The notes below the pieces were generated by a model, which did no database searches, was not told where the DNA came from, and worked only from the letters and a program-made list of their open reading frames with translations. A stretch of 64,000 nucleotides of DNA from assembly GCA_965207735.1 (NCBI GenBank), contig OZ242296.1, forward strand, positions 1,728,001 to 1,792,000. Direction: 5' to 3'. The DNA comes from Candidatus Versatilivorator sp. (GTDB lineage Bacteria; Acidobacteriota; Terriglobia; Versatilivoradales; Versatilivoraceae). Made by a program: the position numbers and the translations under genes. Below, in pieces: positions 18,138 to 63,973 of the stretch; positions within the stretch are counted from its first letter, which is position 1, and each line of letters begins with the position of its first letter.

Positions 18138-18822
18138 TCCTGCGACAAGTCCCCCCCTGTCGGGCGGAACATTCAGAGAATAACCGACTGATCGTCAGTT
18201 ATAGGCGAACCACGAATAGGCACGAAGACCGATGGACCTCCTTCAACCACAAGGTGTCACGACGTCAGGGGAGAAAGCCCCCCGGGAGCGCGGGCGTCCC
18301 GCCCGCCCCAAAGCCTCTCGCAGTCTCGGCCCTCTCCTTCACCCGGGTCGACCGGCTGCAGCATCGCAGGGAAACTGAGCGGCAACCCAAGGGACAGGAC
18401 TAGAGGCCGCTGCACGAAACGCTGACTCAGGCGGGTGCGACTTGATGAAAAATGGGAGTTCACCACAAAAAGCACAAAAGTCACAAAACGAATTTCTTGA
18501 TTTTCGAGTCCTCACGATCCGAAGTTGATCCCCATGGCGTCGCGTTGACCGGATGTAGGCAGATAGCGCGGAACTTGTGCGACATGTTCGGGAGTCAACT
18601 CCTTGCAGGCTTTCAGTGTTCTGCTCTTTTTGTGTTTTTTGTGCCTTTTGTGGCCATTCCCGGCAATGGTCCCGCTGCTGAATATTGCAAAAGGCTCGAG
18701 AGTGAAACAATCAGTAATCGACCATCCCTTCGCGACCTTGGTATCCCGTCGCGGTGAACCTCAGCGCCTTAGTGGCTCTTCGTCGTTCTTCGTGGCCCTT
18801 CGTGGATAAGTCTTTTTCTTTT

Positions 18823-19357
18823 GAGCCATTTGCAAAATTCTTCGGTAAGCGGAATTGATTACCGGGAAGGGTTGTGATCCCCGGGAGGTCGCGTCTGCCC
18901 TCCTCTGGATCGACGGCGGGCGGAGCACTCTCGGGACGCCGCGTTGGCCCCCCTCCGGATCAGCCTTCGCCATTCGGCTCGGCTTCTCCGACTCCCCCTC
19001 AAGGGGGGAGTGATACTTGAGCGCTGAACCAGGCTCCTTGCCTGATTCCGGGGCATGATGTAAATGATGTTCTCGGTTTAGGGTGTCGAGGATGCCCCCC
19101 CGGGAGCGCGGGCGTCCCGCCCGCACCATGTCGGGCACAGCCTTGGCCATCTCCGCCACTCGGATCGACCCGGAACTGCGCCCTGGGTCTGCTTCGGTTT
19201 GACCGTTGAGGTTGCCGCCGACAGGCCGGCACCCTTCAGCACCGGACGAAGGCTCAGCGCCAGCCAAAGGAATGGGGCATAAGGATGCAGGCGGGACGCC
19301 CGCGCTCCCGGGGGGCTTTTGGGCGGCCCGTGCAGATCCGAATTTTGCAAAGGGCTC
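18823..19357. mobile_element. MITE carrying the TIRs of the neighbouring IS
   Basis: GAGCCATTTGCAAAATTC ... GAATTTTGCAAAGGGCTC with TTTT on both flanks; no transposase. Confidence 0.85.
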
Positions 19358-19512
19358 TTTTGTCTCTTGTCGTTTGTTTCAGACAAGCCGGCCCCCGCCC
19401 TGCCGTGCGGATCATTCGAGAGTGAAACAATCAGAAATCGACAATCCTTTCGCGAACTTGGTATCCCGTCGCGGTTAACCTCAGCGCCTTAGTGGCCCTT
19501 CGTCGTTCTTCG

Positions 19513-21506
19513 GTAGAGTCGAGGGGAGGCGCGCCGGCCTTAGATCGAGGGAGTCGCTGTTGCCGGCGGCTTTCGCCACTCGCCGGTGCCTCAATCTCGT
19601 TCCTCGCTGCGTTTCCTCGCCCCCGCTCGTCAAACCGGACGTGCGGTTTTCCCGCATCCGGCTTTCAGTCAAGATCATGCCTTCGCCCTCGGAAGGCTCT
19701 GTGGCTTCGACCCCAGGCAAGTGAGTCCATAGGTTTTCCATAGTCTCTCGTCCGAGAAGCGCACACTCCCCCCGGTCCTCACCTTGTGCTTCCGACAGAG
19801 CCACTGACGCAGCCGCCCGCCCGCGTGGCGGTCGATCGCTCGGTAGGCCGGGCTCACCTGCCCCAGAACGAAGTAGTTCGCCCACCCGGTCATCGCCCGG
19901 TTCAGGTGTTCTACCATCTGTCCTCGAAGCAGCGTCCCGTTCCTCGGCGCCGTCCACTCGCTGATCTTGCGGCAGATGCTCTGGACGCTCGCCTGGCTGG
20001 GTCGTGTGCCGATGTAGGCTCCTTTCCCTTTGGGGCGATAGTTGCGTCCGATGCGATATCCCAGAAACCCCATCGGTTCCTCCGGACACCGCAAGCATCG
20101 GGTCTTCCGCTCGTTGACCGGTAGCTTCAGCTCCTCCATGATCCGCTTGACCGCCGTCAGCATCTCTGCCGCCGGTGCCCTGCCGAGTACACGGAAGTCA
20201 TCCGCATAGTTGACGATCTCCGCACAGAAGCGCCGGGCATATCCCAGCACCTTCCAGCCCAAAACGAAGCGCCGCATGTAGAGATTGCTGAGCAACGGTG
20301 AGATCGGGGCTCCTTGCGGTGTCCCCTTCCGCTCCCGGCGCCCTCGGTTCCGGCGGCGTCTGCCACCCTTCCCGTCGTCCTCCTCCACCGGCATCTCCAG
20401 CCATGCCTTGATGAGCTTGAGCATCCTCCCGTCACTCACGCGCCGGGCAATGCTCCGAATCAGCTCCGCATGCGGAATCTCGCCGAAGTAGTTGGACAGG
20501 TCGCCGTCAACCACCTCCTGGTAACCCCTTTGCAGGAGTTCATGCACGCGTTTGACCGCGTCGTTGGCACTCCGCCCCGCCGATAGCCATATTGCTCCGG
20601 TTGCAGGTCCGCTTCGAAGATCGGCTCCAACACCAGCAAAGCCGCCGTCTGCGCTACCCGGTCCCGTATGCAGGGTATGCCCAAAGGCCGGAACTTGCCG
20701 GGCTGTTTCTTCGGGATCAGCACCTGCCGCACCGGCTTCGGTACGTAGGTTCCTTCCCTCAGATCCCGCGCCAGTTCCCCCAGCCAGCCCTCCACCCCAT
20801 ACGCCTCGATGTCCTTGAAGCCCTCCCCGTCCACCCCGGCCGACCCGCCGTTTCGGCGTACCTGTGCCCAGGCTTCCTTCAGAAAGTCCTCTCGCCACAC
20901 CTTGTCCGACAGCGCATGAAACCGCCGCTTGGGGTCCTCCTTCGCTTTCGCATGTAGCATGGTCTGGAATTTCCGAACCCCCTCTGACCCTGTTAGACTT
21001 TTGTCAGTGGCCACGCCTTGCCTCCTTTCCATGCTGCTCTCAACTCAGGGTCCCTTCCCTCCACCGGCGTTACCCGGCTTCTCCGGTACTACCGACCCAT
21101 CCGCCACCCTGACGGCCCGGCCTGCCCCTCGCGGGGTCCCGGTTGATGTGTGCCGCATCTCCCCCAGGGCTTCCCGTGTTGCTGCCTTCTTCCCCTTCCA
21201 TGCGTGCCAGCGTCACTACCCCGACGGAAGCGGATCGGTGCCCGCGTCGCTCTCTTCCCCATCCGCCAACGGCCTTCCCCTAAAGACAGGAGGGTCGGCT
21301 TCCGTATTGTCCGTTTCGAGGCCTGCTCGACGTTCACTCGCGTTCCGGCCCGCATGCTCGCTGAGCCGCCCTTGGCGGCCCTTGACGCCAGAGTGCTTCA
21401 GACCATTTCGTTACCTCCATGATCCGCCCTGGCTGCTACCAACCGGAGCGACAGTTGTTGGGCGGGGTTCGCACCCGCCAGAAGAAGGCGCCTTTCCACG
21501 GCGCAC
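19513..21506 (-). mobile_element. Group II intron (endonuclease-minus IEP)
   Basis: 5' end GTGCG at 21506. Domain V AAAGCCGGATGCGGGAAAACCGCACGTCCGGTTT (19665-19632). 3' end ...GACTCTAC at 19513. The flanks rejoin into an intact repeat unit. Confidence 0.93.
19675..21032 (-). pseudogene. ltrA: Group II intron reverse transcriptase/maturase, frameshifted near 20580
   Basis: Frame 1 carries GVDG, IPK, RPLGIPCIRDRVAQ, QYGYR. Frame 2 carries GRSANDA, DLSNYF, GTPQGAPISPLLSN, YADD, FLGY, GWANYF. About 1 nt is missing at TATCGGCGGGGCGG. Confidence 0.88.
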
Positions 21507-21536
21507 TGTCCCTTCGTGGATAAGTCTTTTTCTTAT

Positions 21537-23023
21537 GAGCCTTTTGCAAAATTCGCAGATAGCGGGAATTTTCACGTGGGGAAAGATCAAGGAGGGCAGG
21601 TGGAAGGAGGGGCAAGACCACTGTCTGTTGTATCATGAAGGTGTCTGAACCACATGATGAACGGAGGTGGAACTTGCCCCTTAGGGAAACCCTATCACGA
21701 CACTGGTTCCGGTTTCAACGAGAGCTGTTTCCCCTGCTGGAGGAAGTTTTGGGGCCTCTGGGAGAGCGTTACCAGCGGCTGGTGCAGGTATTGGAGTTGG
21801 TGCGGGTGGAGGAGTTGCTGCCTTACAGTCGGGGCTGGCGTGGCCGGCCGCTGGAGGATCGGGCAGTGCTGGCGCGAGCCTATCTGGCGAAGTCGATGCT
21901 GGAGGTGGCGACCACGCGGGGATTGGTGGAGCGGCTGAGGAGTGAGGGGAGGCTGCGGCGGCTGTGCGGCTGGGAGAGGGCGTGGGAGGTACCGAGCGAG
22001 TCGACCTTCTCGCGGGCCTTTGCGGAATTCGCTGAGAGCGACCTGCCGGGGCGTTTGCACGAGGCATTGCTGGAGGAGACGCTGAAGGGCCACTTGGCGG
22101 GGCATGTGTCGAGGGACTCGACGGCGATTGCGGGACGGGAAAAGCCAGCGGCCAAGGCTGCGCCGGAGGCCAAGCGGAAACGCCGGCGGGGCCGGCCGCC
22201 GAAGGGCGAGCGACGGCCCAAGCGGTTGAGCCGGCTGGAGCGGCAGGGGTCGATGACGCTGGAGGAAATGTTGAAGGAGTTGCCCAAGGCCTGCGACATC
22301 GGCGTCAAGCGCAACGCCAAGGGGCATCAGGAGAGCTGGACCGGCTACAAGCTACACCTCGACGCCATTGACGGCGGGATTCCGGTCAGTTGTCTGCTGA
22401 CCTCGGCCTCGGTGCATGACTCTCAGGCAGCCATTCCGCTGGCGACGCTGACGGCAAGGCGGGTCGAGAGTCTCTACGACTTGATGGACAGCGCCTACGA
22501 TGCGCCGGAGATCCGGGCCTTCAGTGAGAAGCTGGGGCATGTGCCGATTATTGACGTCAACCCCCGCCGAAGAGCTACCTTGAAAGCCGAGCGGAAGCGG
22601 GAGGCACTGGCCCGGCGCTGTATCGGCCAAGTGACTCCCGAGGCGCGGCGCTACCGGGAACGCTCGACGGTGGAGCGGGTCAACGGACGGCTCAAGGAGG
22701 AGTTTGGCGGGAGGCAGGTGAGGGTTCGCGGCCCCGACAAGGTGAGGTGCCACCTGATGTTCGGCATTCTGGCCCTGACGGTGGATCAGTTGATGCGCCT
22801 GACGCTCTGAAGACCGGGTTGCCACCCCCAACCGCACAGCAGGTTCGCCCGCCTCAAGGCCGGGAGAGGGTAAGCTGTGCCTGCGTCCGGCGACCGCTGG
22901 CCATCCGGCCATCAGATTCGGGCTTTTTCCTTCAAAAGGGTCTTTGCAGCTGGGTAGTCACCGCCGGAACATCACTGTTGCCAGCCCAATGTCATGCCCG
23001 ATTCCGAATTTTGCAAAAGGCTC
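21537..23023 (+). mobile_element. Insertion sequence (DDE, IS5/IS1182-like)
   Basis: Perfect 19-bp TIR GAGCCTTTTGCAAAATTCG; 4-bp TSD TTAT (21533-21536 and 23024-23027). Confidence 0.93.
21635..22810 (+). CDS. DDE transposase
   Basis: PSESTFSR, RDSTAI, GYKLH, SVHDSQ, MDSAYD, YRERSTVERVNGRLK. Confidence 0.93.
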   Translation: MKVSEPHDERRWNLPLRETLSRHWFRFQRELFPLLEEVLGPLGERYQRLVQVLELVRVEELLPYSRGWRGRPLEDRAVLARAYLAKSMLEVATTRGLVERLRSEGRLRRLCGWERAWEVPSESTFSRAFAEFAESDLPGRLHEALLEETLKGHLAGHVSRDSTAIAGREKPAAKAAPEAKRKRRRGRPPKGERRPKRLSRLERQGSMTLEEMLKELPKACDIGVKRNAKGHQESWTGYKLHLDAIDGGIPVSCLLTSASVHDSQAAIPLATLTARRVESLYDLMDSAYDAPEIRAFSEKLGHVPIIDVNPRRRATLKAERKREALARRCIGQVTPEARRYRERSTVERVNGRLKEEFGGRQVRVRGPDKVRCHLMFGILALTVDQLMRLTL

Positions 23024-23157
23024 TTATGTCTTTTTTCGGTTGTTTCAGGCAAGCCGGGCCCCCCGCCCTAGTGTGCGGATCATGCATAGAGTGAAACAAT
23101 CGGAAATCGACCATCCCTTCGCGAACTTGGCACCCCGTCGCGGCCAACCTCAGCGCC

Positions 23158-25380
23158 TTAGTGCCCCTTCGTCGTTCTTCGTGCCCCTTCGTGGATAAGT
23201 CTTTTTCTTTTGTCGTTTTGTCGTTTGTCGGTTGTTTCAGACAAGGCGAAAGCGACGTAGCTTCCGCCGGAGGGGGCTCCGCTCTTGCCTCCCCCGGCCG
23301 CAATCACCACGAACTGGCGCCCCGACACTTCATAGGTGGCCGGGGTTGCGTTTCCCGAGGCCGGTAGCAGAGTTTCCCACAATAGGCGTCCATCGGCCTT
23401 GTCGAAGGCCCGGAACTTGCGGTCGAAGTTGCTGGCGCCGATAAACACAAGCCCGCCCGCCGTCACAATGGGGCCGCCGTAGTTCTCCGACCCGGTCCCC
23501 ACCATTCCCCTTGCCGCCAGCTCCGGGATTTCACCCAAGGGAACCTGCCAGACGATCTCGCCCTTGTCGAGGTCGATGGCGTTGAGGATTCCCCAAGGCG
23601 GTTTCACTGCCGGGTAGCCTTCCGGATCCAGGAAGCGGTTGTAGCCGTCATGACCGTAGGGCAGGCGGTAGAGTGGCCTGCCGGCCCGGTCCGCGGGGAC
23701 CGAGGCGTCCTTGCCGTAGAGAACAAACCCCAGGATGGCCTCCAACGCGTCCTCCCCCAGGTGGGCAAAACCCGGCATGCGGCCCCCGCCCTGGCGCAGG
23801 GTCCGCCGCACCATCTCCTGCGAACGGCGTTTTCCCAGGTCCACCAGCGAGGGAAACTCCGGGGGGGCGCCGCTACGGTCCTGACGGTGGCAGCCGCTGC
23901 AGTTCCACTGGTAGAGCTGCTTGGCGGTGACGGGGCCGGCGACCGCTTCCCTCGCCACCAGCCGCAGGATCCAGGCCATCTCGCTGGAGTTGACATACAA
24001 CCGTCCCGATTCCGGATCGAAAGCTGCCCCGCCCCACTGCCCCCCTCCGTCGAAACCCGGAAAGAGAACGGTCCCCTCCAGACTGGGAGGAGTGAACTGG
24101 GGTCCGTTGCGCAGCTTGCGGAAGCGCTTCAACACCTCCCGGCGCGCTTCCGGAGTGCGGTCGGTTAACAGGTTTTCCGTCAGGTGCTGGCGGGCAAACG
24201 GAGGCGGCTTCGAAGGAAGGACCTGGGTGGCGGCCAGCCGTTCTCCCGGGACGCCGGCGACCGGAACTTTGACTTCCCTGAGCGGGAACAGCGGACGGCC
24301 GGTCACCCGGTCGAAGGTGAAGACGTGTCCGGACTTGGTGATCTGGGCCACGGCGTCAACCGGCCTGCCCTCCCTCACCACCGTCACCAGGCCGGGAGGA
24401 GCCGGCAGGTCCCTGTCCCACACGTCATGCCTGACCACTTGAAAGTGCCAGACCCGCTCGCCGGTTTCGGCCTTCAGGCAGAGCAACGAGTTGGCGAAGA
24501 GGTTGTGGCCGGAACGGTTCCCGCCGAAAAAGTCGAAAGCCGCCGAGCCGGTGGGAACGTAGACCAGGCCGCGCTGCTCGTCCAGGCTCATGCCGGCCCA
24601 GCTATTGGCCCCGCCGGCGGTTTTCCAGGCCTGCCCGGGCCAGGTTCGATGGCCCGGTTCGCCCGGACGGGGAATGGTTCGGAACCTCCAGCGGAGCTTG
24701 CCGCTGCGGGCGTCGTAGGCTCGAATGTCCCCGGGGGCGCTCGGCAGGCTCTCACCCACCGTGCTGCCGAGGATGAGCAGGTCCCGGTAGACAACCCCGG
24801 GCGTGGTCAGAGAAACGGTGATCGAATCGGGTGGCCGCCCCAGGTGGCGCCTCAGGTCGATAAATCCCCGATCCCCGAAGTCCAGGCAGGACTTGCCGGT
24901 GGCCGCGTCCAGGGCATAGAGCCGGTGCCAGTAGGAGAAGTAGATCCGTGCCTGGGCACCCCGGCTCCAGTACATCAATCCCCGAATGCGAACCCTGTCG
25001 CGGGGAGTCCCGCCCGGAATGGACGGCCGGAAAGACCAGATCTCCCTGCCGGTGGCCGCGTCAAGCGCGAAGACCCGCCCTCGGGGACTGGTGGCATACA
25101 GCCGCTCACCCACCACCAGGGGATTGCATTGCATCTCCGAGCCCGGAAAGGCATCCCCCGTATCGTAGGTCCAGGCGACCCGCAATCGGTGCAGGTTGCG
25201 GCGGTTGATCTGAGCGAGGCGGGAGTAGCGGATCTGCCGGTTGCCGCCTCCGTAGGCGCTCCACTGGTCGTGGCCCGCCCTGGGCAGTTCGCGGCCGGGT
25301 TTCCCGGTCCGTGCCAAAGGAACCCAGGCGACCGAAGCCGCAACCGCCAACAAACAGGCCAGCAGTGCACGGTTTTCCAT
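23158..25380 (-). CDS. PQQ-dependent (glucose-type) dehydrogenase with internal cytochrome c domain; C-terminus extended by repeat insertion
   Basis: Signal peptide, [54 protein letters not shown]. Confidence 0.9.
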
Positions 25381-25388
25381 GGTCCCTG

Positions 25389-26867
25389 TCAGACAGAGCG
25401 AAGCGAATAGAGTCTGGCCCGGCGCATCCGAAAGCGCAACCGCACCGGGCGGCCACTCCAGGCGGAGAGGTCCGACTCCCCTCTCCAGGTGACGGTGTGG
25501 TCGAGGTGGTCGCCGGAGATGGGATCGCAGTCTTCGAAAGCGCGGCCGGGAAGGGCGGGAGCATGAGTCCTGCGGTTGTCGCCCGAGGCATCGGCCACCT
25601 CCACCCGTATCTCACCGCCGAATCGGGTCCAGGCGTTGAGCACCAGGCGCGACCCGCTGAGAGCCAGGATCAGGGTGGAGCACCCACCCAGGGACTCCGC
25701 CTCCAGGGAGACGAACCCGTCCTGCCGCCAGCTTGCGGTCAATACGCCGGTCTCGGGACGGGAGTTGTCGAAGAAGAGGGTGTTGTGGGAGCCGCGCCGG
25801 GGCGAGTAAGGCAGCGACCACTCTCCCGGGGTCAGGCTGACCAGGCCGCAGCCGGCATAGGCGCCTCCCTCGGCTTCGGAACCCGGCTCGCCGGCCGGAA
25901 TGATCGGTCGCCGCAGGGGTCTTTGCCAGTTCAGACCGTCTCGGCTGATCATCAGGTGCACTTCGGCGAAGTCGCCCGTGTGGCGGTAGAAAGCCGGAAA
26001 CATCAGGTGGGCGTCGGCTCCGGGCCAGCGCGTATAGGAGTTTGTGTAGATGTCGGTGTCGGGGCCGTCGTGCATGTCGATCCCCACCAGTGGCCGGGGA
26101 GTCGGCCAGTGCTCGAAACGGTCCGTCTCCGCGTAGCTGATGATGCGGCGGGCGTGGGAGGTTCCATGCTCGTGGGCTGTCCAACCTCGGAAGTATCCGA
26201 CGTAGACTCCCCTTTCAGGATCGAATTCGACCACGCTCTGGGTATCGCTGAGGTAGTTCGCGATCAACGGCTCCTGGATCATTCTCCAGTGCAGCCCGTC
26301 GGAGGACAGGGCTCCGAAGACACAGAAACGGCCCTGGTGCGACCCCAGATGGACCATCTTGTAACGCTCCGGCGGAGGCGCCGAGGGGTCCTTGAAGACG
26401 GTGGCCCCGTGGGCGTCCCGGCCCGGTGAGGCATCCAGCCCGAAGACCAGGTTGTTGCGGCGCGATCCCCGGTAGGTCACCCTACCCAGCTCCGGCTTGA
26501 CCCAATGGATCCCGTCGCTGGACTCGGCATAGGCCATCACCCTCTGGGTTCCCACGTCCTCGTCCACCTCCAGCTCGCCGCTCAGGTCCCCGCTGTCGTA
26601 GTAAAGCCTCCAGCGCCCCTCGTCCTCCAGCAGAGTGCTGTATACCCCCAGGCCGGTACGGGCGTTTCCGGCCTCCCACGGCTTGTCGGCCGTCACCAGT
26701 GGAATGCGGTCCAGGCGAGGCGGATGGACTCTCAGGCGGACCCCATGGGGCATTTCCCAGCTATCGGGCCGTTGGCCGCCGAACGACAGACCGTAGCCCG
26801 GCTCGATCAGGTTCCAATCCACAAAGACGTGCTTGCGGCTTCCCAGCTGGAACGGCTTGTAGGTCAT
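25389..26867 (-). CDS. Five-bladed beta-propeller glycoside-hydrolase-like protein
   Basis: [31 protein letters not shown]; C-terminal DGFVSL...[14 protein letters not shown] sandwich. Confidence 0.7.
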
Positions 26868-27006
26868 GAGCTGCCTCCAGTCCTCACGTGTGAGCCAGGA
26901 GCATACAACAACTGCCGGAATGCCCCGATCTCTTTATTCATGGCCCGCATCGCGGTATACTGCAGGAACATCGGAAAGAATCCCGGCCCCGATGCCGACA
27001 GTCCGC

Positions 27007-29847: not shown

Positions 29848-29865
29848 CGGCCCCGCGCTCTGACA

Positions 29866-31341: not shown

Positions 31342-31366
31342 CTTTCCCCCCACATCCCGGTCCCGA

Positions 31367-33082: not shown

Positions 33083-33107
33083 ACGACTGCGGAAGGATTT
33101 CTGGCGG

Positions 33108-38114: not shown

Positions 38115-38250
38115 CCGCCTGAAACAAACCCGTCGCCGGGTGGCGGGAGACCGGTTCAAAGTCACGCATGAGTAGATTGTCTATTAACATCGATGCACAG
38201 GATGCACAGGATTTTTTCTGGAAACGGCTGGCTTGTAGTCCTCGACATCC
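38115..38250 (-). repeat. Inverted right half of a type-B GRCAAG-family element
   Basis: The reverse complement matches about 58995-59125 (GCCAGCCGT..AAAAATCCTGTGCATCCTGTGCATC..CCGGTCTCC..CACCCGGCG..TTGTTTCAG). Confidence 0.8.
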
Positions 38251-38550
38251 GTATCGCTTTGGGTAAAGCGTTTGAATTCGAGAAAGGGTGCAGGCCGGCT
38301 TTCAGAGAAGTCGCCCGCCGGATGCCCCCACCTCGCCATCGGGAGGACACCCCCCGGGAGCGCGGGCGTCCCGCCCTCATCCTCTCCCTTTCGTGCCAAT
38401 TCGTGTCCATTGGTGGTTTTTTTCCTCTATGCCTTTCGGTCTCAGGCGTGGCCTCACCAGGTATTTTATACCAAAGCAGGCTTCCATCCCGATGTGTGGC
38501 GATCTCGGAGAGGGCGGCGCAACTGCAGTTGGCGCAGCTCAACCCGCTTT

Positions 38551-48359: not shown

Positions 48360-48935
48360 GGCAAGCCGGGCCCCCGCCGTGCCAGGCGGATCATTCAGAG
48401 GAGAAACAGCCAGCTGTTTGCGTTTTGGAAAGAGACAGGATTAATAGGACCAGAGGCCGCTGCACGGGACGCTGACTGGGAATCGGGGCGTTGGGCACGG
48501 CCAAGGCCCGCCACGGGGAAGATCAATCGAGAAGGACTAAGAATTGAACATGGATGCACAGGATGCACAGGATGCACAGGACGAGAGCTTCCTGCACCAG
48601 AAGCCAACTCGGGCGATGATCCGGTGCGGATTTGCAGATTCCCGGCAGTAGAAGCCAGCCGTTTCCTGAAGAATCCTGTGAATCCTGTGCATCGATGTTA
48701 ATGATCTCCTTAAATCACGATGGGGTCGGAAGCCCCCCACTGGCTCCGCCGCGGTCCTTGTTGCTTCTTCGCGGACAAATCCTCTTTGTCCCTTGTGTCC
48801 TTCGTTGACCCCCTTGCCGACCTTCGCCCCATCCCTCTTGAGCCTTCTCCAGCGCCTTGGTGGACCTTCGTCGTCCTTCGTGTGTCTTCGTGGATTCCTC
48901 TTTTTCTTTTTTCTTTTTCGGTTGTTTCAGACAAG
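48360..48935 (+). repeat. Single type-B GRCAAG-family element
   Basis: CTCA-GGCAAG-CC on the left and GGTTGTTTCA-GACAAG-CC on the right; the first ~340 bp closely match 58735-59060. Confidence 0.85.
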
Positions 48936-49132
48936 CCAAGCCGCGCCCGGGCTTAGCTGAAACCGGAGATGGGCGCGCCTTTGACCCTCCCTGTCGGGCC
49001 GTGATAGGCTTCGCGACGAAAACCGGTCAAGGGGCGCTCCTTGGCCTCCATCCCAACGCAAATGTGGCTTACCGGGAGATTCCACGGCGGTGGCGCCGGT
49101 AGCCCGGCCGGCCGCCTCGACCCAACACCCCC

Positions 49133-55290: not shown

Positions 55291-55320
55291 CTCTTCACTC
55301 TTCACTCTTCACTCTTCACT
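55291..55320. repeat. (CTCTTCA)x4 heptamer microsatellite
   Basis: Directly visible; contains the recD2 stop codon. Confidence 0.9.
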
Positions 55321-57577
55321 CGACACTTGCCTTCGGTTGTACCTTGGAGGCCGCGCCACCCTGCAGCCGGCTGAGAAGTCCGGAATAGCGGCGCTCCTGC
55401 TTGTCATTCCTGACCGCCATGTGCAGTGCCCGGGCTTGCCCAATGACCACCACCAGCTTCTTTCCACGAGTGATCCCAGTGTAGATCAGATTGCGTTGAA
55501 GCAGCAGATATTGCTGCATAGCCAGGGGAATGACCACCACCGGGAATTCCGAGCCCTGGCTCTTGTGGATGGAGATGGCAAACCCTGGAGAAAGCTGGTC
55601 CAGTTCGTTGAAGTCGTAAGTCACCTTCTGACTCTCGAATCGGATGGCCACACCCTTGTCCAGCGGGTCGACCATTTCTATGCGGCCCATGTCTCCGTTG
55701 AAGACATTCTTGTCGTAGTTGTTCTCCATCTGAATGACCTTGTCCCCGACACGGAATATCCATCCGAACTTCTCGATCTCCGCCCGTCCCGGACGAGCGG
55801 GGTTGAGTAGATCTTGCAGCCCCCGGTTCACCTCCCGGGCACCCAGCGACCCGCGATGCATGGGACAGAGCACCTGGATGTCCCGGATGGCGTCGACACC
55901 CAGTCGTCCGGGGATCCTTTCCTGGATCAACCTCGACATCAGCCCTGTGATCTGCTCCGGATCCTCCCTCTCCAGAAAGTAAAAGTCCGAGTCGGGAGCA
56001 TTGCCCGAGACCGGAGACGGCGCCTTGCCGTGATTGACCTCGTGAGCGGTAGTGATGATCCGGCTGTCTCTCGACTGACGAAAGACTTCTTTCAACCGAA
56101 CCACCGGCACCACCCCGCTGGCGATCGCGTGGTGCAGAACCATCCCCGGCCCCACCGAGGGAAGCTGGTCCACATCTCCAACCAGAATCAGCGAGCCGCC
56201 GGGGGGATGGGCAGCCAGCAGATGGCTCATGAGCGGGACGTCCAGCATGGAACATTCGTCGACCACCAACAGATCGCATTGCAGGGGATTTCGCCGGTTC
56301 CTGGCGAATCGACCCGTGGCCGGATTGACCTCGAGCATACGGTGGATGGTCTTGGCCTCCATTCCAGTAGCCTGGGAAAGCCGCTTGGCGGCCCGGCCCG
56401 TGGGAGCGCACAACAGGCATTTCACTTTCTTGGCTCTGAGAATCATCAGGATCGAGTTCATCAGGGTGGTCTTGCCCACTCCAGGTCCACCCGTAATCAC
56501 CAGAACCCGGTGCCTCAAGGCCTGGACCAGAGCCTCTCTCTGACTTTCCGCCAGGATCTTGCCCGAGCGCTGCTGGCACCAGGCAATGGCCTTTTCCAGG
56601 TCGATCGGAGGATAGTTGGCGGAAGTCCGGGCCAACCGGCTGATCCTGCCGGCAATGACTTTTTCGGCGCTCGCCAGGTGCGGCAAAAAGACCAGGGCTT
56701 CCCCCTCCAGGCTTTCCTGCAGCAGTTGTCCTTGAGCAATCATCCAGGCCAGGGCTTCTTCCACGATTGATTCAGCGATTTCAAGGATCTTTACGGCCTC
56801 CTGGTGAAGCTGGGAGGCAGGAAGCGCACAGTGGCCGTTCTGGGTCGCTTCCAGCAGAACGTGGTTGAGACCGGCCCGCGCCCGTAGGGCCGAGTCCCGC
56901 GAGATTCCGACATTGGCGGCAATCTGGTCGGCCGTCTTGAACCCCACACCCGGGATGTCCTGGCTCAACCTGTAGGGATTCTCCCGGACCTGGGCCACGG
57001 CATTCGACCCATAGGTTCTGTAGATTCGGGTCGCCCTTCGGGTTCCGACCCCGTGAGAGTGAAGGAAGAGCATGATTTCCCGGATGGCCTTCTGATCCGA
57101 CCAGGCCTGAGTGATGCGCCTCCTGCGACCCGGACCGATCCCTTCGACGGCTTCCAGGCAAGCAGGGTGCTCCTCGATGATTTCAAAGATCTCCTTCCCG
57201 AATTTCTGTACCAGCTTTCGGGCGTATACCCGTCCGATGCCTTTGACCATACCGCTAGCCAGGTACTTTTCGATGCCTTCAGCCGTGGTGGGCGGGATAC
57301 ACCGGAGCTGGTCGGCCTTGAACTGGCGCCCGTGGTTCTTGTCGATGACCCAGGCGCCTTCGGCGTTGAGCCACTCTCCGGAGTTGACGGTCGGGGCCGA
57401 CCCCACCACGGTCACCAGGTCCCGTTGCCCCCTGACCTTGACCTGAAGCACGCAGAAACCGTTCTCCTCGCTGAAGAAGGTCACCCGCTCAATGGCGCCT
57501 TCGAGTCGGTCAGAAACCGACGGGGGCGAAGCTCCCGGCTCCGATCGTCCCTTTTTCCCAGATGGAGATAATGGCAT
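55316..57577 (-). CDS. recD2: ATP-dependent RecD-like DNA helicase (RecD2)
   Basis: HhH motifs (KGIG, PGVGFKTAD), TGGPGVGKTT, APTGRAAKRL, VDECSM, GDVDQLPSVG, SIHKSQGSEFP, YTGITRGK. Confidence 0.95.
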   Translation of the reverse strand: MPLSPSGKKGRSEPGASPPSVSDRLEGAIERVTFFSEENGFCVLQVKVRGQRDLVTVVGSAPTVNSGEWLNAEGAWVIDKNHGRQFKADQLRCIPPTTAEGIEKYLASGMVKGIGRVYARKLVQKFGKEIFEIIEEHPACLEAVEGIGPGRRRRITQAWSDQKAIREIMLFLHSHGVGTRRATRIYRTYGSNAVAQVRENPYRLSQDIPGVGFKTADQIAANVGISRDSALRARAGLNHVLLEATQNGHCALPASQLHQEAVKILEIAESIVEEALAWMIAQGQLLQESLEGEALVFLPHLASAEKVIAGRISRLARTSANYPPIDLEKAIAWCQQRSGKILAESQREALVQALRHRVLVITGGPGVGKTTLMNSILMILRAKKVKCLLCAPTGRAAKRLSQATGMEAKTIHRMLEVNPATGRFARNRRNPLQCDLLVVDECSMLDVPLMSHLLAAHPPGGSLILVGDVDQLPSVGPGMVLHHAIASGVVPVVRLKEVFRQSRDSRIITTAHEVNHGKAPSPVSGNAPDSDFYFLEREDPEQITGLMSRLIQERIPGRLGVDAIRDIQVLCPMHRGSLGAREVNRGLQDLLNPARPGRAEIEKFGWIFRVGDKVIQMENNYDKNVFNGDMGRIEMVDPLDKGVAIRFESQKVTYDFNELDQLSPGFAISIHKSQGSEFPVVVIPLAMQQYLLLQRNLIYTGITRGKKLVVVIGQARALHMAVRNDKQERRYSGLLSRLQGGAASKVQPKASVE

Positions 57578-57762
57578 GTCTTCTCGAGCCCCCTTTCGCG
57601 CAGCCACCCGGCTGCAAGAGTTGATTAAGGACACGAAGGGAAAAAGTCATCCACGAAGGGTCACGAAGGATGGCGGAGAGACAGGAAGAAAAACTCAAGG
57701 GAAAATGAGTTTGTTGGCCGCCGAGCGCCGGCAGGTGCTGCGCTCTTGCTCAAACGCTGAGG

Positions 57763-58215
57763 TCAAGAAGCCGGCGGCCGGTCATGGAACGGGTCCCGCC
57801 GGTCGAGTTCGGGGAACAAGGAAAAGTCGCGGTCCCGGGTAAGCAGGAATTCAACGCCGTGGGCGATACAGATCGCCGCAATCCGAGCGTCGTGCACGAT
57901 GGCTCCCCGTACTCGCGGACGCTGAACCAAGGCGCCCAGGATCTCCAAGAAATCATCCGTCTCACCGAGAAGGCGATTGCCTGGCGATGCCGCCCAGGCT
58001 TCGAGTTGCTGCCAGGCATGTTGCGGTGGAGTGGCTGCTTCCCTCCAGATTCGGTGATTTGTCACCACGCTTAGAAACTCGTAGCAGCATGGCCAGGGAA
58101 TCGCCCAAACCCTGTCTCCTTCAGCCAACGCCCGCAAAACCTCACGGGCTGCCTCGTGCAATCTTGACTCCCTGCGGTGGGCGTAGACAAGCAAGTTCGT
58201 ATCGACTGCAATCAA
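57763..58215 (-). CDS. vapC: VapC family PIN-domain toxin
   Basis: IAVDTNLLVYAH, YEFL, VHDARIAA, TRDRDF. Confidence 0.93.
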   Translation of the reverse strand: MIAVDTNLLVYAHRRESRLHEAAREVLRALAEGDRVWAIPWPCCYEFLSVVTNHRIWREAATPPQHAWQQLEAWAASPGNRLLGETDDFLEILGALVQRPRVRGAIVHDARIAAICIAHGVEFLLTRDRDFSLFPELDRRDPFHDRPPAS

Positions 58216-58460
58216 TGTCTCTCCGGCTCACCGTAGATCATTCCACGCAGATCCTGCCACGAAAAAGCCTCCAGCGGGTCGGCAGCCTCTGGATCTCCGG
58301 TGCTCAGATCCGGCAACCGGTACCGGTTCCGTGACTCAGGCAGGGAGAGCAGTTGCCGGAGGCCCTCCTCCACCACGGAACGCAACGAACACCCTTTTTT
58401 CCTGGCGCGCTGTTTGGCGCGTGCCAGCAACTCGTCATGGATATCAATCGTCGTCTTCAT
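58212..58460 (-). CDS. vapB: VapB-type ribbon-helix-helix antitoxin
   Basis: MKTTIDIHDELLARAK..SLRSVVEEGLR; 4-nt overlap with vapC. Confidence 0.88.
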   Translation of the reverse strand: MKTTIDIHDELLARAKQRARKKGCSLRSVVEEGLRQLLSLPESRNRYRLPDLSTGDPEAADPLEAFSWQDLRGMIYGEPERH

Positions 58461-58465
58461 GAGAG

Positions 58466-58503
58466 CCATACTAGCAATATTAAATAGTATGGGCAACCCA
58501 TAT
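58466..58503 (-). promoter_or_regulatory. Putative vapBC operator palindromes
   Basis: CCATACTA-N11-TAGTATGG (58466-58492) overlaps TATGGG-CAA-CCCATA, in AT-rich DNA just upstream of vapB. Confidence 0.6.
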
Positions 58504-58552
58504 TCAAAATCGCCGGCCAAGTCACCTTTCCTGTCAAGAACCGGCAAACTCT

Positions 58553-59312
58553 GACAAGTGTCGCCCCCGCTCTGTCGTGCGGATCATAAGAGAGTGAAAC
58601 TATCAGAAATCGACCAATCCCTTCGCGACCTTGGTATCCCGTTACGGTTCACCTCAACGCCTTAGTGGCCCTTCGTCGTTCTTCGTGCCCCTTCGTGGAA
58701 AAGTCTTTTTCTTTGTCTTTTGTCGGTTGTTTCAGGCAAGCCCGGCCCCCGCCGTGCCAGGCGGATCATTCAGAGGAGAAACAGCCAGCTGTTTGCGTTT
58801 TGGAAAGAAATAGGACCAGAGGCCGCTGCACGGGACGCTGACTGGGAATCGGGGCGTTGGGCACGGCCAAGGCTCGCCACGGGGAAGATCAATCGAGAAG
58901 GACTAAGAATTGAACATGGATGCACAGGATGCACAGGACGAGAGCTTCCTGCACCAGAAGCCAACTCGGGCGATGATCCGGTGCGGATTTGCGGATGTCC
59001 AGGACTGCAAGCCAGCCGTCTTCAGAAAAAATCCTGTGCATCCTGTGCATCCATGTGAATAAACCAACTACCCATGCTTGACCTTGAGCCGGTCTCCAGC
59101 CACCCGGCGCCCGGGTTGTTTCAGACAAGTCCCGCCCCCGCCCTGGTGTGCGGATCATACATAGAGTGAAACAATCAGAAATCGATCAACCCTTCGCGAA
59201 CTTGGTACCCCGTCGCGGCCAACCTCAGCGCCTTAGTGTCCCTTCGTCGTTCTTCGTGCCCCTTCGTGGATAAGTCTTTTTTCTTTTGTCTTTTTCGGTT
59301 GTTTCAGACAAG
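58553..59312 (+). mobile_element. Array 2: three head-to-tail GRCAAG-core elements (types A-B-A)
   Basis: Cores at 58553, 58735, 59124 and 59307; internal junctions read GTTTCAG...GAAAC. Confidence 0.82.
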
Positions 59313-60818
59313 GATTTCGCGAACGACCCTGGGTTCGAAGTTGAAGGTGATCTTTTCCCTGAGCCCGCTGCGTTCGAAGAAGAGTTCTTCGTGGTGCAGG
59401 CCCAGCAGGTGCAGAATGGTGGCGTGCAGATCCTCGATGCTCACCGGGTTCTCCACCGCCCGATAGCCGAATTCGTCGGTGGCCCCGTAGACCGTTCCTC
59501 CCTTGACTCCCCCACCGGCCATCCAGAGGCTGAAGCCCCGGGGATTGTGGTCCCGGCCGGCCACACCCTGTTTGGGCATGATCTGGGCGATAGGATGGCG
59601 CCCGAACTCGCCGGCCCAGATCACCAGGGTGCTGTCCAGCAGTCCCCGCTCTTTCAAGTCCGCCAGCAAAGCGGCCACCGGCTGATCGGTTCGGTCGCAA
59701 CAGGACCTCAGGTCGGCCTCCAGGTGGGAATGGGAGTCCCAGATCTGGCTGTTCACGCATACCTGCACGTAGCGGACGCCGCGCTCCACCAGGCGCCGGG
59801 CCATGATGCAACGGCGGCCGTAGTTGTCGGGACCGGGGTTCACATGGGTCTTTCCCACCACCGCCGGCTTTCTGCCGACGCCATACATCTCCAGGGTTGT
59901 GGGGCTTTCCCGGGACAAGTCCAGCGCATCGGTAGCTTCCAGCTGCAGGCGTGCGGCCAACTCATAGCTGGCGATGCGGGCATCCAACTCGGGTAGCCCC
60001 GGACGGTCCCTCCGGTGGATCCGGTCGAGCTGCTGGCGGAGATGGGTCCCCATCCTCACCAGCGCGGTCGGCTCCTCGACCTCGGGGCGCAGATTCAGCA
60101 AGGGTTCTCCCACCGAGCGCAAGCGCGTCCCCTGGTAGATGGGAGGCAGAAACCCCGACTGCCAGTTGGCGATGCCGTTGATTGGCAGGCCCTGGGGATC
60201 ATCCAGCACCACGAAGGCCGGCAGGTTCCGGTTCTCGGTTCCCAGTCCGTACACCACCCAGGCCCCCAGGGTCGGCAGGCCCGGCAGCATGCGCCCCCCC
60301 TGAAACTTGTAGAGCGCCGCCGGATGGGCCGGACTGGTGGTGTGCATGGACCGGATGACGGCGATGTCGTCCACCCGCCGGGCGATATGGGGCATGGCCT
60401 CGGACACCCAGGTGCCGGACTGGCCGTGCTGGGCAAACTTGAAGGGACTACGCAACAACCCGCCGGCCTGCTGAGGCGACGGCACATCCACGGCCACCTG
60501 GTCGAAATAGGGCTCTCCGTGGTGCTTGTCCAGCATCGGTTTGGGGTCCAACAGATCCATGGGACTGGGGCCGCCATTCATGAACAGCAGAATGACCGAC
60601 TTGGCCTTGGTCTCGAAATGGGGCTTCCTGGGAGCGACATCGTAGATTCGGCCGCGGCCGGGAGCCGGTGACTCGGACCTGCCCGCCAGGCTGGACATGC
60701 CAAAGAGGTCCCGCGTTAGCAGGTGGGTAAGGGCTACCCCGTAGATGCCGTCGGAGACTCGCCCGAAGAAATGGCGGCGGGTCATGGACCGAGTTGATCG
60801 GTGGCGTGCTTGTTTCAC
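59304..60818 (-). CDS. DUF1501 protein (Tat-exported)
   Basis: TRRHFF, LFMNGGPSPMDLLDPKP, GEFGRHP, GRDHNP; the TGA stop lies inside the element's right end. Confidence 0.92.
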   Translation of the reverse strand: MKQARHRSTRSMTRRHFFGRVSDGIYGVALTHLLTRDLFGMSSLAGRSESPAPGRGRIYDVAPRKPHFETKAKSVILLFMNGGPSPMDLLDPKPMLDKHHGEPYFDQVAVDVPSPQQAGGLLRSPFKFAQHGQSGTWVSEAMPHIARRVDDIAVIRSMHTTSPAHPAALYKFQGGRMLPGLPTLGAWVVYGLGTENRNLPAFVVLDDPQGLPINGIANWQSGFLPPIYQGTRLRSVGEPLLNLRPEVEEPTALVRMGTHLRQQLDRIHRRDRPGLPELDARIASYELAARLQLEATDALDLSRESPTTLEMYGVGRKPAVVGKTHVNPGPDNYGRRCIMARRLVERGVRYVQVCVNSQIWDSHSHLEADLRSCCDRTDQPVAALLADLKERGLLDSTLVIWAGEFGRHPIAQIMPKQGVAGRDHNPRGFSLWMAGGGVKGGTVYGATDEFGYRAVENPVSIEDLHATILHLLGLHHEELFFERSGLREKITFNFEPRVVREILV

Positions 60819-60830
60819 GGTTGCGCGGGT

Positions 60831-63800
60831 TCAGTCGATATAGACAAAGGCTGCCGAATTATAGAGCGTGTGGGCCAACTTGGCCAACACCCGCTGCCGC
60901 TCCCGGCTCCGGTTCCCCAATTCCTTCCAGGCGCTCCGAACTGACCGCAGGCTCAACCGCCGCTCTTCAGCAGTGGGCGGCCGGCTGAACACCTTCCAGT
61001 AAAGGTGTTCCACCTGGGCTTCCAGGCTGTCGCCCGCTTCCGTTTCCACCCGCTGCGCCAGGGTGGAGGCCAGCCGGCGGATGGTGGCGTCGTTGAGCAG
61101 GTGAAGAGCCTGCGGGGCCACGGTGGACTGGGCCCTTTCGGTGCAATTCGGATTCATGGTGGGATAGTCGAACAGGTCCAGGGTCGTGGGGCTGTTCATG
61201 CGCAGTTGCCGAATATAGATGCTCCGCCGCCATCCCCGTTCCCCCTCGTAGGCAGTGGAAAGCCCATCGGCTCTCACGAAAACCGGAGCGGGGGGACCGT
61301 AGGGAGTCTCATCCAGGCGACCGCTGATCCAGAGCAGGCTGTCGCGGAGGGCTTCTCCGTCCAATCTCTTCAGCGGCCACCGGGACAGGAGCCGGTTTTC
61401 GGGGTCCAACCGTTCCTGCTCGGGACCGACCCTGGAGGACTGGCGGTAGGTTCTGGAGGTCATCATCAACCGGTGAAGGGCCTTCATGCTCCAGCCTCGA
61501 TTCATGAACTCCACCGCCATCCAGTCCAGCAGCTCCGGATGGGTGGGACGGGCGCCTGACCGGCCGAAATTCCCCAGGGTCTCGACGATTCCCCGGCCAA
61601 AGTGGTAGCGCCAGATCCGATTGACCATCACGCGGGAAGTCAAGGGATGGTTCCGATTCACCAGCCACTTGGCCAGGGCCAGCCGCCGTCCGGTCTTTTT
61701 GGATCCCGGCCAGGGGGGCTCTACCTGAAAAGGGGTTCTGCCGTCGGTCAGCACCGAGGGCACCCCCGGCCCTACCAGCCGGCCTGGGCTTAAGAAGTCT
61801 CCCCGCTGGAGCAGATAGGTGGGCGAGGGAGCCCCACGGTCCCAGAGCGCCCGAATGCGTGGTTCCGGCTCCTGCCTGTATTGCAGCCAGGCGATCTTCC
61901 GCTCCAGACTCTGTGCCTCCCGGCGGTAGACGGCATCCCGTTCCTTCAACTCGTTGGAAGTGACGGTCAACAGTTGCTCATACTCCTTGGCCAGTGATTT
62001 CTGCCTGCTGTCCCGACCCTCCTCCGGAGTCTTCAGCAACTGCCTCAGGTCCTGGGCCAAGACGGGGGCAAGCTGATCCAACCGCTCTGCCAGAACGCTG
62101 TCACTCAAGTCCTTGCCCTTTTCCTCCAACGCCTGCTGCAGTTCCTTGACCTGCTCTTCCAGGACCTCGTTGCCGGCTTTGCGCTCCTTCTCCTGCTCCA
62201 GCAGGCGCATGGGATTGGTCATTGGAGGCACGTAGGGCAGGACCCGCTGCTCGAATTTCACCACCTCGCTGATGGGAGTTCCCGCCAACCAGTCGAACTC
62301 GTCCAGAGCCCCCTTCAGGAGATCGGCCAGCCGGAAGTAGTCACGCTGGGGAATGGGATCGAACTTGTGGCTGTGGCAGCGCGCGCATTGGAGCGTCATT
62401 CCCAGTATGCCGGTCCCCAGGATCTCGATCTCATCGGCGATAACGTCGAACCGGTCCTCCACGAAGCTGAGCTCGAAGCCGGTGCTGTCGGGCCCCATGC
62501 GCAGGAAGCCGGTGGCGATCAGGTTGTCGACCATCTCCCGGGTAATCACCGGAGATGTCTCGTAGTCGACCAACTCGTCTCCGGCGATCTGCTCCATGAG
62601 AAAACGGTCATAGGGTTTATCGGCGTTGAGGGATCGGATGACATAGTCCCGATACCGCCAGGCATACTTCCTGGCCGGTCCGTTGGCATTGACCTTTCCG
62701 CCCTCGTGGTCGGAATATCCGGCCACGTCCAGCCAGTACCGTCCCCAGCGCTCCCCATAGCGGGGAGACTCCAACAAGCGGTCGATGAGCCTTTCGTAGG
62801 CCCGCGGATGCCGATCCTCCAGGAATCGCCGGACCTCGGCCGGTTCCGGAGGGAGCCCGGTCAGGTCGAAAGTGGCTCGCCGGATCAGGGTCAGCCGATC
62901 GCCTTCAGCTGACAGCGACAATCCCCGGGCTTCCAGAGCTCGCAATACAAAGGCGTCTATGGGATTGTTTACCTGATCCCCATGCTTCACCGGAGGGGGC
63001 TTGACCTGCCTGGGTGGCTGGAAGGCCCAGAACTGGCGGTCCTGGTCGCTCACCAGAGGATCGGGCCCGGTGCCGGCAACGTCGGGTTTGATGTCCTCTT
63101 CCGGAGCGCCCTGCTGAATCCACTGCCGCAGCCTCTCCAGGTCGGAATCCGACACGGGTGTTACCCCGACTTCGAAGAGCCGCTTCTTGGGCGGCATCTT
63201 CCCAGAACGGATCATCTCCACCATCAGGCTCTGGCCCGGCTTTCCGGGAGTCAGCGCCGGCCCCGATTTCCCGCCCCGGATCATGGAGGCCCGACTCCTG
63301 AGATCGAGGTCATTGCCCTGACGGCGCAGCCCGTGACAAGTAGTGCAGTGGCGCAGCAGGATCGGGATCACGTCGTGCTGGTTGAGTGCCTGGGTTGCGG
63401 CGTCCTCTTCCGGCCCGCTCGCCAGGCCGGTTTCGATCCAGTCCTTGATGGTTGCCCTTTGCGCCTCCGCAAGCCCTCCCTCCAGATCGGGTGGCATCGA
63501 ACCGCTTTCGACCAACCGGTAGAGCTTGCTCTCCGCCGGCCGTCCAGGCACGACCACCGGACCCGATTCGCTTCCTTTCAGCAGGCTGGAGAGGTGGCTG
63601 AGATCCAGCTCCTTCATCATCAACTCCTCCCCGTGGCAGCGCAGGCAGTGTTCCTCGAAGACGGGGAGAATCTTCTCCTGGAAGGACTTCTCCCGGGCCG
63701 ACAGTTCCCCGCTGCCGGTCTGGGCGAAAGCGGCTCCGGGCAAAGAGGTCCAGAAGAAAAGACCCAGGCTCAGGAACAGGCCCGCGGCCCTTGTCGGACG

Positions 63801-63833
63801 GTTTCTTGTTGCCTGGGGAGAAAAAAGATTCAT
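60831..63833 (-). CDS. Double planctomycete cytochrome c + DUF1549/DUF1553 protein
   Basis: HCLRCH, HCTTCH, CARCHSHKFDPI, YGERWGRYWLDVAGY, SRVMVNRIW, APQAL. Confidence 0.92.
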   Translation of the reverse strand: MNLFSPQATRNRPTRAAGLFLSLGLFFWTSLPGAAFAQTGSGELSAREKSFQEKILPVFEEHCLRCHGEELMMKELDLSHLSSLLKGSESGPVVVPGRPAESKLYRLVESGSMPPDLEGGLAEAQRATIKDWIETGLASGPEEDAATQALNQHDVIPILLRHCTTCHGLRRQGNDLDLRSRASMIRGGKSGPALTPGKPGQSLMVEMIRSGKMPPKKRLFEVGVTPVSDSDLERLRQWIQQGAPEEDIKPDVAGTGPDPLVSDQDRQFWAFQPPRQVKPPPVKHGDQVNNPIDAFVLRALEARGLSLSAEGDRLTLIRRATFDLTGLPPEPAEVRRFLEDRHPRAYERLIDRLLESPRYGERWGRYWLDVAGYSDHEGGKVNANGPARKYAWRYRDYVIRSLNADKPYDRFLMEQIAGDELVDYETSPVITREMVDNLIATGFLRMGPDSTGFELSFVEDRFDVIADEIEILGTGILGMTLQCARCHSHKFDPIPQRDYFRLADLLKGALDEFDWLAGTPISEVVKFEQRVLPYVPPMTNPMRLLEQEKERKAGNEVLEEQVKELQQALEEKGKDLSDSVLAERLDQLAPVLAQDLRQLLKTPEEGRDSRQKSLAKEYEQLLTVTSNELKERDAVYRREAQSLERKIAWLQYRQEPEPRIRALWDRGAPSPTYLLQRGDFLSPGRLVGPGVPSVLTDGRTPFQVEPPWPGSKKTGRRLALAKWLVNRNHPLTSRVMVNRIWRYHFGRGIVETLGNFGRSGARPTHPELLDWMAVEFMNRGWSMKALHRLMMTSRTYRQSSRVGPEQERLDPENRLLSRWPLKRLDGEALRDSLLWISGRLDETPYGPPAPVFVRADGLSTAYEGERGWRRSIYIRQLRMNSPTTLDLFDYPTMNPNCTERAQSTVAPQALHLLNDATIRRLASTLAQRVETEAGDSLEAQVEHLYWKVFSRPPTAEERRLSLRSVRSAWKELGNRSRERQRVLAKLAHTLYNSAAFVYID

Positions 63834-63860
63834 GGGAGCCTTCAGCGGGGCGAGCCCTGG

Positions 63861-63973
63861 CTTGTTTGGAACAAACGAAAAAAGACAAAAGAAAAAGAGT
63901 TATCCACGAAGGGCCACTAAGGCGTTGAGGTTAACCGCGACGGGATACCAAGGTCACGAAAGGATTATCGATT
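63861..63973 (-). repeat. Inverted type-A element, interrupted by an IS
   Basis: Reverse complement matches the type-A interior and right end. Confidence 0.85.

Follow-up and report, generated by a model that had tools for sequence, protein, structure and literature searches.

The closest described relatives of the repeats analysed here are ISPpu9 and MITEPpu9 of Pseudomonas putida KT2440 (PMC12288879), which comprise an insertion sequence of the IS110 group with an AG core, a left box with a hairpin and AAAC, a right box of GTTT, a few nucleotides and AG, tandem copies and modular circles, together with a non-autonomous module (ssr9) that shares the parent's ends and lies head to tail behind it. 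Also close are IS621 and ISCro4 (PMC11208160; PMC13626964), whose recombinases combine a DEDD RuvC-like and a serine domain and are guided by an upstream bridge RNA with target and donor loops, with a 2-nt core and subterminal inverted repeats, and the expanded IS110 loci (10.64898/2026.08.14.744561), with tandem non-coding units (n = 468), reinsertion at occupied sites and cargo capture. The window considered here, a 64,000-nt stretch of the Candidatus Versatilivorator sp. genome (GCA_965207735.1; contig OZ242296.1, positions 1,728,001–1,792,000), contains a family of non-coding repeat units that share two ends and stack head to tail. As a whole, these are probably best explained as IS110 miniatures that target their own right ends and move as a folded single-stranded donor.

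In a strict catalogue of the source genome (G000; its relatives carry other G-numbers, and L-numbers denote homologue or comparison loci), left ends numbered 209 and right ends 282, with 165 complete units of 60 bp to 3.7 kb at 93 loci; 42 of these loci carried arrays of two to six units. Type A accounted for 108 of the complete units (~180 bp; mean identity 88%, with 106 distinct sequences); the others were 15 minimal (60–68 bp), 18 intermediate and 14 long units and the 10 full elements, such that 155 were gene-less, and the DNA inside units totalled 77 kb. The window contained 8 exact copies of the 12-mer GTTTCAGRCAAG and the whole genome 205 (expected under an order-3 Markov model, 0.02 and 1.5, respectively), and the right-end motif was present in 12 of the 13 genomes of the genus and in none of 17 outside it. 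Among the 16 longest units other than the parents, eight had IS5-type repeats and four had a group II intron 5′ end; long interiors consist of type A units into which other mobile elements have inserted.

The ten full elements, none of which lies among the units of the window, are ~1.67 kb long, have the same ends and encode a 464–468 aa protein at 97–100% identity. This protein scored 220 bits against the NCBIfam IS110 model NF033542 (cut-off, 140), has the DEDD RuvC-like domain and C-terminal serine domain of the family, with D32, E80, D117 and S352 invariant and D120 nearly so in 11 homologues, and matched IS621 and ISCro4 distantly (PDB 8wt6 and 9t56; E 2e-11). An earlier note, made from the window alone, had proposed a non-autonomous, site-preferring element mobilised in trans by an enzyme encoded elsewhere, with IS110 as one option, and had suggested searching the genome with both ends for a longer autonomous copy; these ten units are such copies, and it is likely that the miniatures are copied in trans by the parent recombinase and its predicted bridge RNA. 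The RNA lies upstream of the gene and the right end is ~25 bp, so that the downstream bridge RNA and long right end of the IS1111 group are absent, though 7–9 bp subterminal repeats are present. An AlphaFold model of the recombinase from an 11-row alignment (predicted local distance difference test, 68; predicted template modelling score, 0.44; extra helices at ~178–230 and ~429–463) supports no claim. The parent 5′ region was found in at least six of 13 relatives, on scoring of no more than 40 candidates in each genome. Parent and motif are both absent from G001, G011 carries 40 motifs without a parent match, and G009 carries 193 with a single partial one, from which it appears that miniatures may outlast their parent or use a variant enzyme.

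Across the homologues, only AG is common to both ends and the remaining letters of the core region vary, and one unit of the window (42811) starts after CAGATAG. On this comparison the shared core is the dinucleotide AG rather than the 6-bp GRCAAG first proposed, with GRCA belonging to the right end and visible on the left because the target resembles the right end. The inverted repeats (7–9 bp) are subterminal and asymmetric, and junctions 19376, 23042, 58729 and 59118 share one core, as anticipated from the window, with zero offset (exactly one shared core) at 71 of 72 array junctions genome-wide. The possibility that the units are IS91-like rolling-circle elements, targeting CAAG and moved by an HUH transposase, had also been considered and would account for the CAAG at the right junction, the hairpin near the left end and the tandem arrays. 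It is now very improbable, as the same ends enclose an IS110 gene in ten copies rather than an HUH/Y2 gene (no genome-wide HUH search was made), and the homologues conserve AG alone, with CTAG, TCAG and TGAG variants of the core region tracked by the guides described below.

The 270 nt upstream of the recombinase gene fold as a three-way junction with two internal loops (14 sequences), a predicted bridge RNA for which 96% of alignment cells are paired and two-sided changes affect 7 of the 37 pairs, both scored on the same alignment that yielded the structure. A profile search of the genome returned 10 matches, all in full parent copies and none in a miniature. The region is covered in two RNA runs, as assembled contigs, which are unable to show transcription. 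Homologues were gathered from genomes, metagenomes and a phylum-wide search; 162 loci gave 93 records with near-full RNA matches and 54 distinct elements with a hairpin call (56 in a set without the hairpin requirement, from which six records were dropped for short flanks). The match between guides and DNA sites was assessed across the 54 distinct elements using 20,000 permutations per test.

Three of the four predicted guides covary with DNA sites. The target guide (loop 1, 3′ side) corresponds to a 7-nt stretch of left flank whose last two letters are AG (4.50/5 vs 1.74 permuted), one donor guide (loop 2, 3′ side) to the element's own right end (4.92/5 vs 2.50 permuted, n = 39), and a second donor guide (loop 2, 5′ side) to a 7-mer that follows the left-end hairpin, on the same strand (6.39/7 vs 4.16 permuted); no permutation reached any of the three observed values, although such figures overstate independence because the homologues are kin. 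With one element per distinct guide (n = 23), the second donor guide still matched at 6.17 vs 3.66. Its reverse complement was at chance (3.41 vs 3.43), as was the canonical position beside the core (1.70 vs 1.69). The second target guide (loop 1, 5′ side) was at chance in the canonical geometry (2.35 vs 2.29), and tests over canonical, displaced and reverse geometries gave 4.75 vs 4.59, 4.64 vs 4.57 and 4.19 vs 4.43; compared with 90 G000 flanks it had no match, with one of eight counts mildly high (15/90 vs 8.8% background). The IS621-type geometry, with loop guides on opposite strands beside the core, was thus absent for the second donor and second target guides. Within G000, the two copies with the donor guide AGACAAG are the two that have that right end.

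In this lineage, AGRCAAG is the predicted sequence of both the target guide and one donor guide and also forms the right end of the unit itself, so that every right end would be a target and each insertion would leave a new one. All ten full elements follow another unit's right end, which together with the guide match would account for the arrays. There are 1,459 AGRCAAG sites in the genome, 221 of them right ends, and 113 of the 165 units start at a right end; among the other first-in-array sites, 20 of 51 are within one mismatch of the guide, compared to 159 of 5,000 random AG sites. First-in-array sites have a TTKC bias at −11 to −8, and GTTTC occupies that target position in 19 of 54 homologues (six from the self-targeting group of the genus), such that the protein probably reads a GTTTC-like sequence 5 nt from the core in the target, adding preference. 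An identical 65-bp unit occurs at four loci, each time behind a different neighbour. On these comparisons it is very likely that the repeats are gene-less miniatures, lacking a bridge RNA, of both ends of an IS110 element with a self-targeting guide.

Otherwise identical copies (L003 vs L004; L009–L012; G000 minimal units) are distinguished solely by the four nucleotides that follow the core, and 49 variants of the spacer that follows the core were counted in G000; these spacer-only differences suggest exchange with neighbours at insertion. RCAAG is repeated straight after the core in 9 of 90 terminal flanks (for example, window 48936–48940, G000 62810 and 466500), and a 16-bp right end is duplicated alone at G000 4641042–4641069. 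At L097, L100, L104 and L134, the 8-nt spacer CTCCACAC continues the flank sequence as if restoring a tRNA end, where the target presumably resembles a tRNA 3′ end, GGTTCGATCCCGGTTAG.

The left end has a constant plan: AG, 8 nt, a GC hairpin that varies in both sequence and length, the 7-mer, 5–6 nt and GAAAC. The distance from core to hairpin is 7–9 nt in 48 of 54 elements, and a stem of at least 4 bp abuts the 7-mer in 52 of 56 elements when no hairpin is required (30% in shuffles), with 11 different outer arms. Positions 2–7 of the second donor guide match in 48–54 of the 54 elements, half of its mismatches (8/16) are wobble-compatible with the antisense strand, and positions 9–10 match the DNA in only 4 and 7 of 54. 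Among the G000 units the hairpin carries a compensatory change (C-G in 140 and T-A in 25 of 178), and the GTTTC/GAAAC inverted repeat pairs in 32 of 36 by a loose check. With both donor guides matching one strand, they would pair with a single strand at sites ~30 nt apart, and a folded arm lacking a core complement would imply exchange of a single strand, completed by replication. We infer a folded single-stranded donor on strong comparative grounds and consider it the favoured reading, if with less assurance than the family assignment. The 60–65 bp units are predicted to be the minimal form of this donor, with just the recognition signals. A duplex circle of ~65 bp would be strained.

In the proposed sequence of events, the strand antisense to the recombinase gene would first be released in circular form, with AG linking the right end to the left end. 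GTTTC and GAAAC would then close a stem, the GC hairpin would make a U-turn, and the bubble between them would mimic an opened duplex in which the donor loop could pair with both arms of the one strand, at AGRCAAG beside the core and at ATCATTC past the hairpin, facing the spacer and brought close to the core by the fold. The target loop would use a single guide, AGRCAAG, its other side matching nothing; one strand would be exchanged at AG and replication would likely finish the insertion. Each insertion would create a new right end, again the best target, and the array would grow. Anything between both ends could ride along, from ~4 nt to several kb. Single-stranded excision circles have been reported for IS621 (10.64898/2026.08.31.748434), and copy-out with top-strand insertion for CazIS110-1 (10.1101/2025.10.25.684509).

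The same miniatures and self-targeting could be combined with a double-stranded donor, in which the left end is a half-site of its own, held by the displaced guide while the duplex is bent or cruciform, perhaps during excision alone, with the hairpin a protein-binding or extrusion signal. Equal folding of both strands would suit such a donor, as would the left-end inverted-repeat (hairpin) mutant of ISPpu9, which kept circularising in a test of excision only (PMC12288879), and the target stem-loop that serves as a specificity signal in the duplex targets of ISPpu10, for which guides on opposite strands are described (10.64898/2026.03.19.712850). It is nonetheless unlikely, as both donor guides are in the sense of one strand, requiring the U-turn, the 8-nt spacer is fixed though hairpin length varies freely, the 60–65 bp units move independently, and the unmatched guide positions 9–10 offer no second-strand core.

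Less likely again, and quite improbable, is that only the right-end guide matters, by half-match recombination, and that the left 7-mer and hairpin covary with the RNA through something else, for instance pairing with an antisense RNA, promoter or terminator function, or an ancient internal duplication. Excision and insertion by half-match are reported for IS621 and for expanded loci in nature (10.64898/2026.08.31.748434; 10.64898/2026.08.14.744561), a single guide already seems to serve the target loop here, and ATCATAC and ATCATCC are tolerated in G000 units. Such recombination leaves unexplained why RNA-less units down to 60 bp retain a hairpin with compensatory change, why the 7-mer match follows 23 different guide sequences, and how exact left boundaries arise, which need left-end recognition.

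Beyond the kinship of the homologues, a number of observations count against the self-targeting, folded single-stranded donor. The commonest 7-mer in G000, ATCATAC (86 of 178 units), is one mismatch from the resident guide ATCATTC, in a search whose pattern itself admitted T, A or C at the variable position, and the right ends of L017 and L032 differ from their donor guide. Folding energy is neutral as to strand (bottom strand more stable in 17 of 36), hairpin pair 2 is T.G ten times and C.A three times, slightly favouring the other strand, and conservation of spacer positions 5–8 (GCCC) leaves the spacer only partly free to vary. To the ISPpu9 hairpin mutant may be added the bases beside AG, whose mutation altered or redirected circles (PMC12288879). 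No right-end/left-end joint was found in the assembled contigs of 4 of 24 runs, and tandem junctions look identical to circle junctions. No clear replichore orientation bias of units was found (40/31 and 14/8), GC skew being weak. Finally, there is only one clean empty site: a wider comparison with 400 kb of G002 gave no empty and three differently filled sites among the 93 loci, and a comparison in the reverse direction had 0 usable of 23.

That empty site is the G002 form (L180) of the 48366 site, with a single core where CCTCAGACAAG is followed by CCAAGCCG and without target duplication, an outcome that the earlier note had looked to relatives to provide. Relatives also hold different units at the same core for 42811 (two relatives), 59312 and 23245. 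The swapping of interiors first suggested is better read as different units at the same site together with mobile elements landing inside units. An empty site without duplication and subterminal, asymmetric repeats set the units apart from classical miniature inverted-repeat transposable elements (MITEs).

In integron attC cassettes and the attP of CTX phage, a folded single strand mimics a duplex, with one strand exchange finished by replication, and integron cassettes stack at one site. Those systems use tyrosine recombinases and protein-only recognition, whereas the enzyme here is an RNA-guided DEDD/serine recombinase, and the likeness is an analogy of mechanism, not membership. In layout the units follow MITEPpu9, with the parent's boxes (compared with Table S2 of PMC12288879) around gene-less DNA, an AG core and tandem placement behind the parent; the suggestion of a possible new class does not hold, as this layout was already published, with ISPpu9/MITEPpu9 as precedent. 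MITEPpu9 is ~350 bp long, has 8 copies and carries a small RNA, compared to 155 gene-less units here, down to 60 bp and free of bridge RNA; ISPpu9 targets repetitive extragenic palindromic (REP) sequences, whereas the target guide here equals the element's own right end; and the accessible parts of that paper contain no guide mapping or folded-donor proposal. IS621 and ISCro4 are smaller (328–341 aa vs 464 aa) and only distantly related, the AG core here being CT on the other strand, and each IS621 loop pairs with both strands beside the core, in contrast to donor guides on one strand ~30 nt apart and one unmatched target guide. For the expanded loci, growth is reported to proceed via half-matches and insertion to regenerate no target (10.64898/2026.08.14.744561), whereas here the target is apparently regenerated because the target guide equals the donor guide.

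What is unusual, judged from the comparative data, is a second donor guide that matches, on the same strand as the first, a 7-mer lying past a conserved hairpin and ~30 nt in from the left end. A literature search, with preprint supplements and subscription papers outside its scope, returned no paper that describes a fold-back donor or a target guide identical to an end of its own element, and no same-strand donor occurs in the accessible parts of PMC11208160, PMC13626964, 10.64898/2026.10.21.760802 and 10.1101/2024.06.21.599552. Bridge recombinases are under development as editing tools, and single- versus double-stranded donors were debated in papers of 2025–2026; the ~150 natural variants define a minimal donor (60 nt), reveal the variable positions and point to a predicted fold-back geometry on one strand. 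Regeneration of the target by its own guide accounts for tens of kb of intergenic DNA in the genus and suggests iterative cassette stacking at a single site. If the fold-back step is wrong, the remainder is an extreme but known case of IS110 miniatures.

Transposase-less units of ~330–340 bp lie directly behind an IS110 element at L034:4425–4763, L045 and L046 (both ~3604–3942) and L072:2101–2428. Each has its own bridge RNA, whose target guide is the same as the right end of the host element and whose donor guide is the same as the right end of the unit itself (exact in L045, L046 and L072; two mismatches in L034), and they look like orphan guide RNAs redirecting the host enzyme. A MITEPpu9-like unit of 350 bp on a Pseudomonas plasmid (L163:2501–2850) has in its RNA part ATGAGAG (the ISPpu9 B box end), ATAGAAG (its own B′ box end) and CCCTGTC (6/7 to the post-hairpin 7-mer), guides that were read by eye, the bridge-RNA profile having given no match there; on this reading, Ssr9 would seem to be an orphan bridge RNA directed to the right end of the parent. 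Taken more widely, and with confidence only a little above even, the ISPpu9-like IS110 clade (~460 aa) may be a widespread group of RNA-guided recombinases with a self-folding single-strand donor, a counterpart of attC; in the present genus a target guide for the element's own end would have led to cassette stacking, with a 60-nt single-stranded dumbbell as the smallest cassette, and orphan bridge RNAs, apparently including Ssr9, would redirect the host enzyme behind the parent. A sister IS110 at 80% identity (L019–L027; G008 and G013) has the target guide AGGTCAG and inserts into (CAGTGGT/CAGTGAT)n runs, and its second donor guide, AGCATAC, fits the ATCATAC variant dominating the G000 miniatures.

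Within the window, repeat units are present at all seven loci given in the earlier note, with some revision of their form. The array at 18144–23245 opens with a degenerate left end (18144–18184, plus strand; read from the sequence as GACAAG, a short spacer and hairpin, and AACATTC, GAAAC being absent). The repeat at 18703 belongs to a truncated type A unit (18698–19387, plus strand), cut off on the left by an IS5-type terminal repeat (18680–18697), interrupted by a gene-less 535-bp IS5-ended element (18823–19357) and with its right end intact (GTTTCAGACAAG). The long interior of the complete 3,666-bp unit that follows (19388–23053, plus strand) is not a separate type but type A plus a group II intron and an IS5/IS1182-like element. 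The intron (19513–21506, minus strand; Rfam RF00029 and RF02003; Pfam RVT_1 and GIIM) lies within the CTTCGTG tract and its reverse-transcriptase gene is split over two frames (20460–21032 and 19675–20898), and the IS5/IS1182-like element (21537–23023, plus strand; transposase 21635–22810) lies within the T-rich tract with 18-bp terminal repeats, flanked on both sides by TTAT. A 192-bp type A unit (23054–23245, plus strand) is the final member of the array.

Elsewhere, a right-hand part of a type B unit lies at 38115–38250 and the right part of a 1,654-bp unit at 63861–64000 (type A plus an IS5-like element from 63974; the unit extends past the window and ends at 65514); both are on the minus strand, with degenerate right ends, and no left end of the former was seen up to 38560. 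A remnant interior (40102–40218, plus strand) has CAGGA and CTTCGTG repeats, a T tract and a GTTTCA lacking the core. Two further plus-strand units stand singly, a 182-bp type A unit at 42811–42992, for which the AG of the preceding flank CAGATAG is also the last two letters of the TAG stop of a TonB-receptor gene, and a 570-bp type B unit at 48366–48935. The A-B-A array consists of a 182-bp type A unit (58559–58740), a 389-bp type B unit (58741–59129) and a 183-bp type A unit (59130–59312), all on the plus strand. The last of these displays the full anatomy, with core AG (59128–59129), 8-nt spacer (59130–59137), hairpin (59138–59153), the guide-matching 7-mer ATCATAC (59154–59160) and inverted repeat TGAAACAA (59167–59174), and a right end of GTTGTTTC, AGACA and AG (59298–59312).

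Several other repeats are associated with the unit interiors. The group II intron inserts in the CTTCGTG tract of type A units, with its 5′ end in four long units and upstream of the parent at 2819093. The IS5/IS1182-like family (18680–18697, 18823–19357, 21537–23023 and 63974 onward) has the terminal repeat GAGCCTTTTGCAAAATTC, of which the right-hand form has 119 matches in the genome, and gene-less derivatives, often inside type A units. Type B interiors (48548–48700, 58913–59060 and 18502–18615; L189) lie between CAGGATGCA inverted repeats and look like decayed GxxExxY nuclease genes; intact GxxExxY genes as cargo were rejected, as only fragments occur in the genome (five PF13366 matches of 38–62 residues). 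A REP-like repeat, GGGAGCGCGGGCGTCCCGCCCGC, with 69 copies in the genome and often in type B interiors, lies at 18269–18304, 19087–19122, 19290–19310 and 38341–38376. The window also contains repeated DUF1549/DUF1553 and DUF1501 genes (26866–37990 and 59304–63833), and the neighbours of the arrays include a VapBC-type pair (57763–58547), a RecD2 helicase (55316–57634) and a LexA-like peptidase S24 gene (17035–17778).

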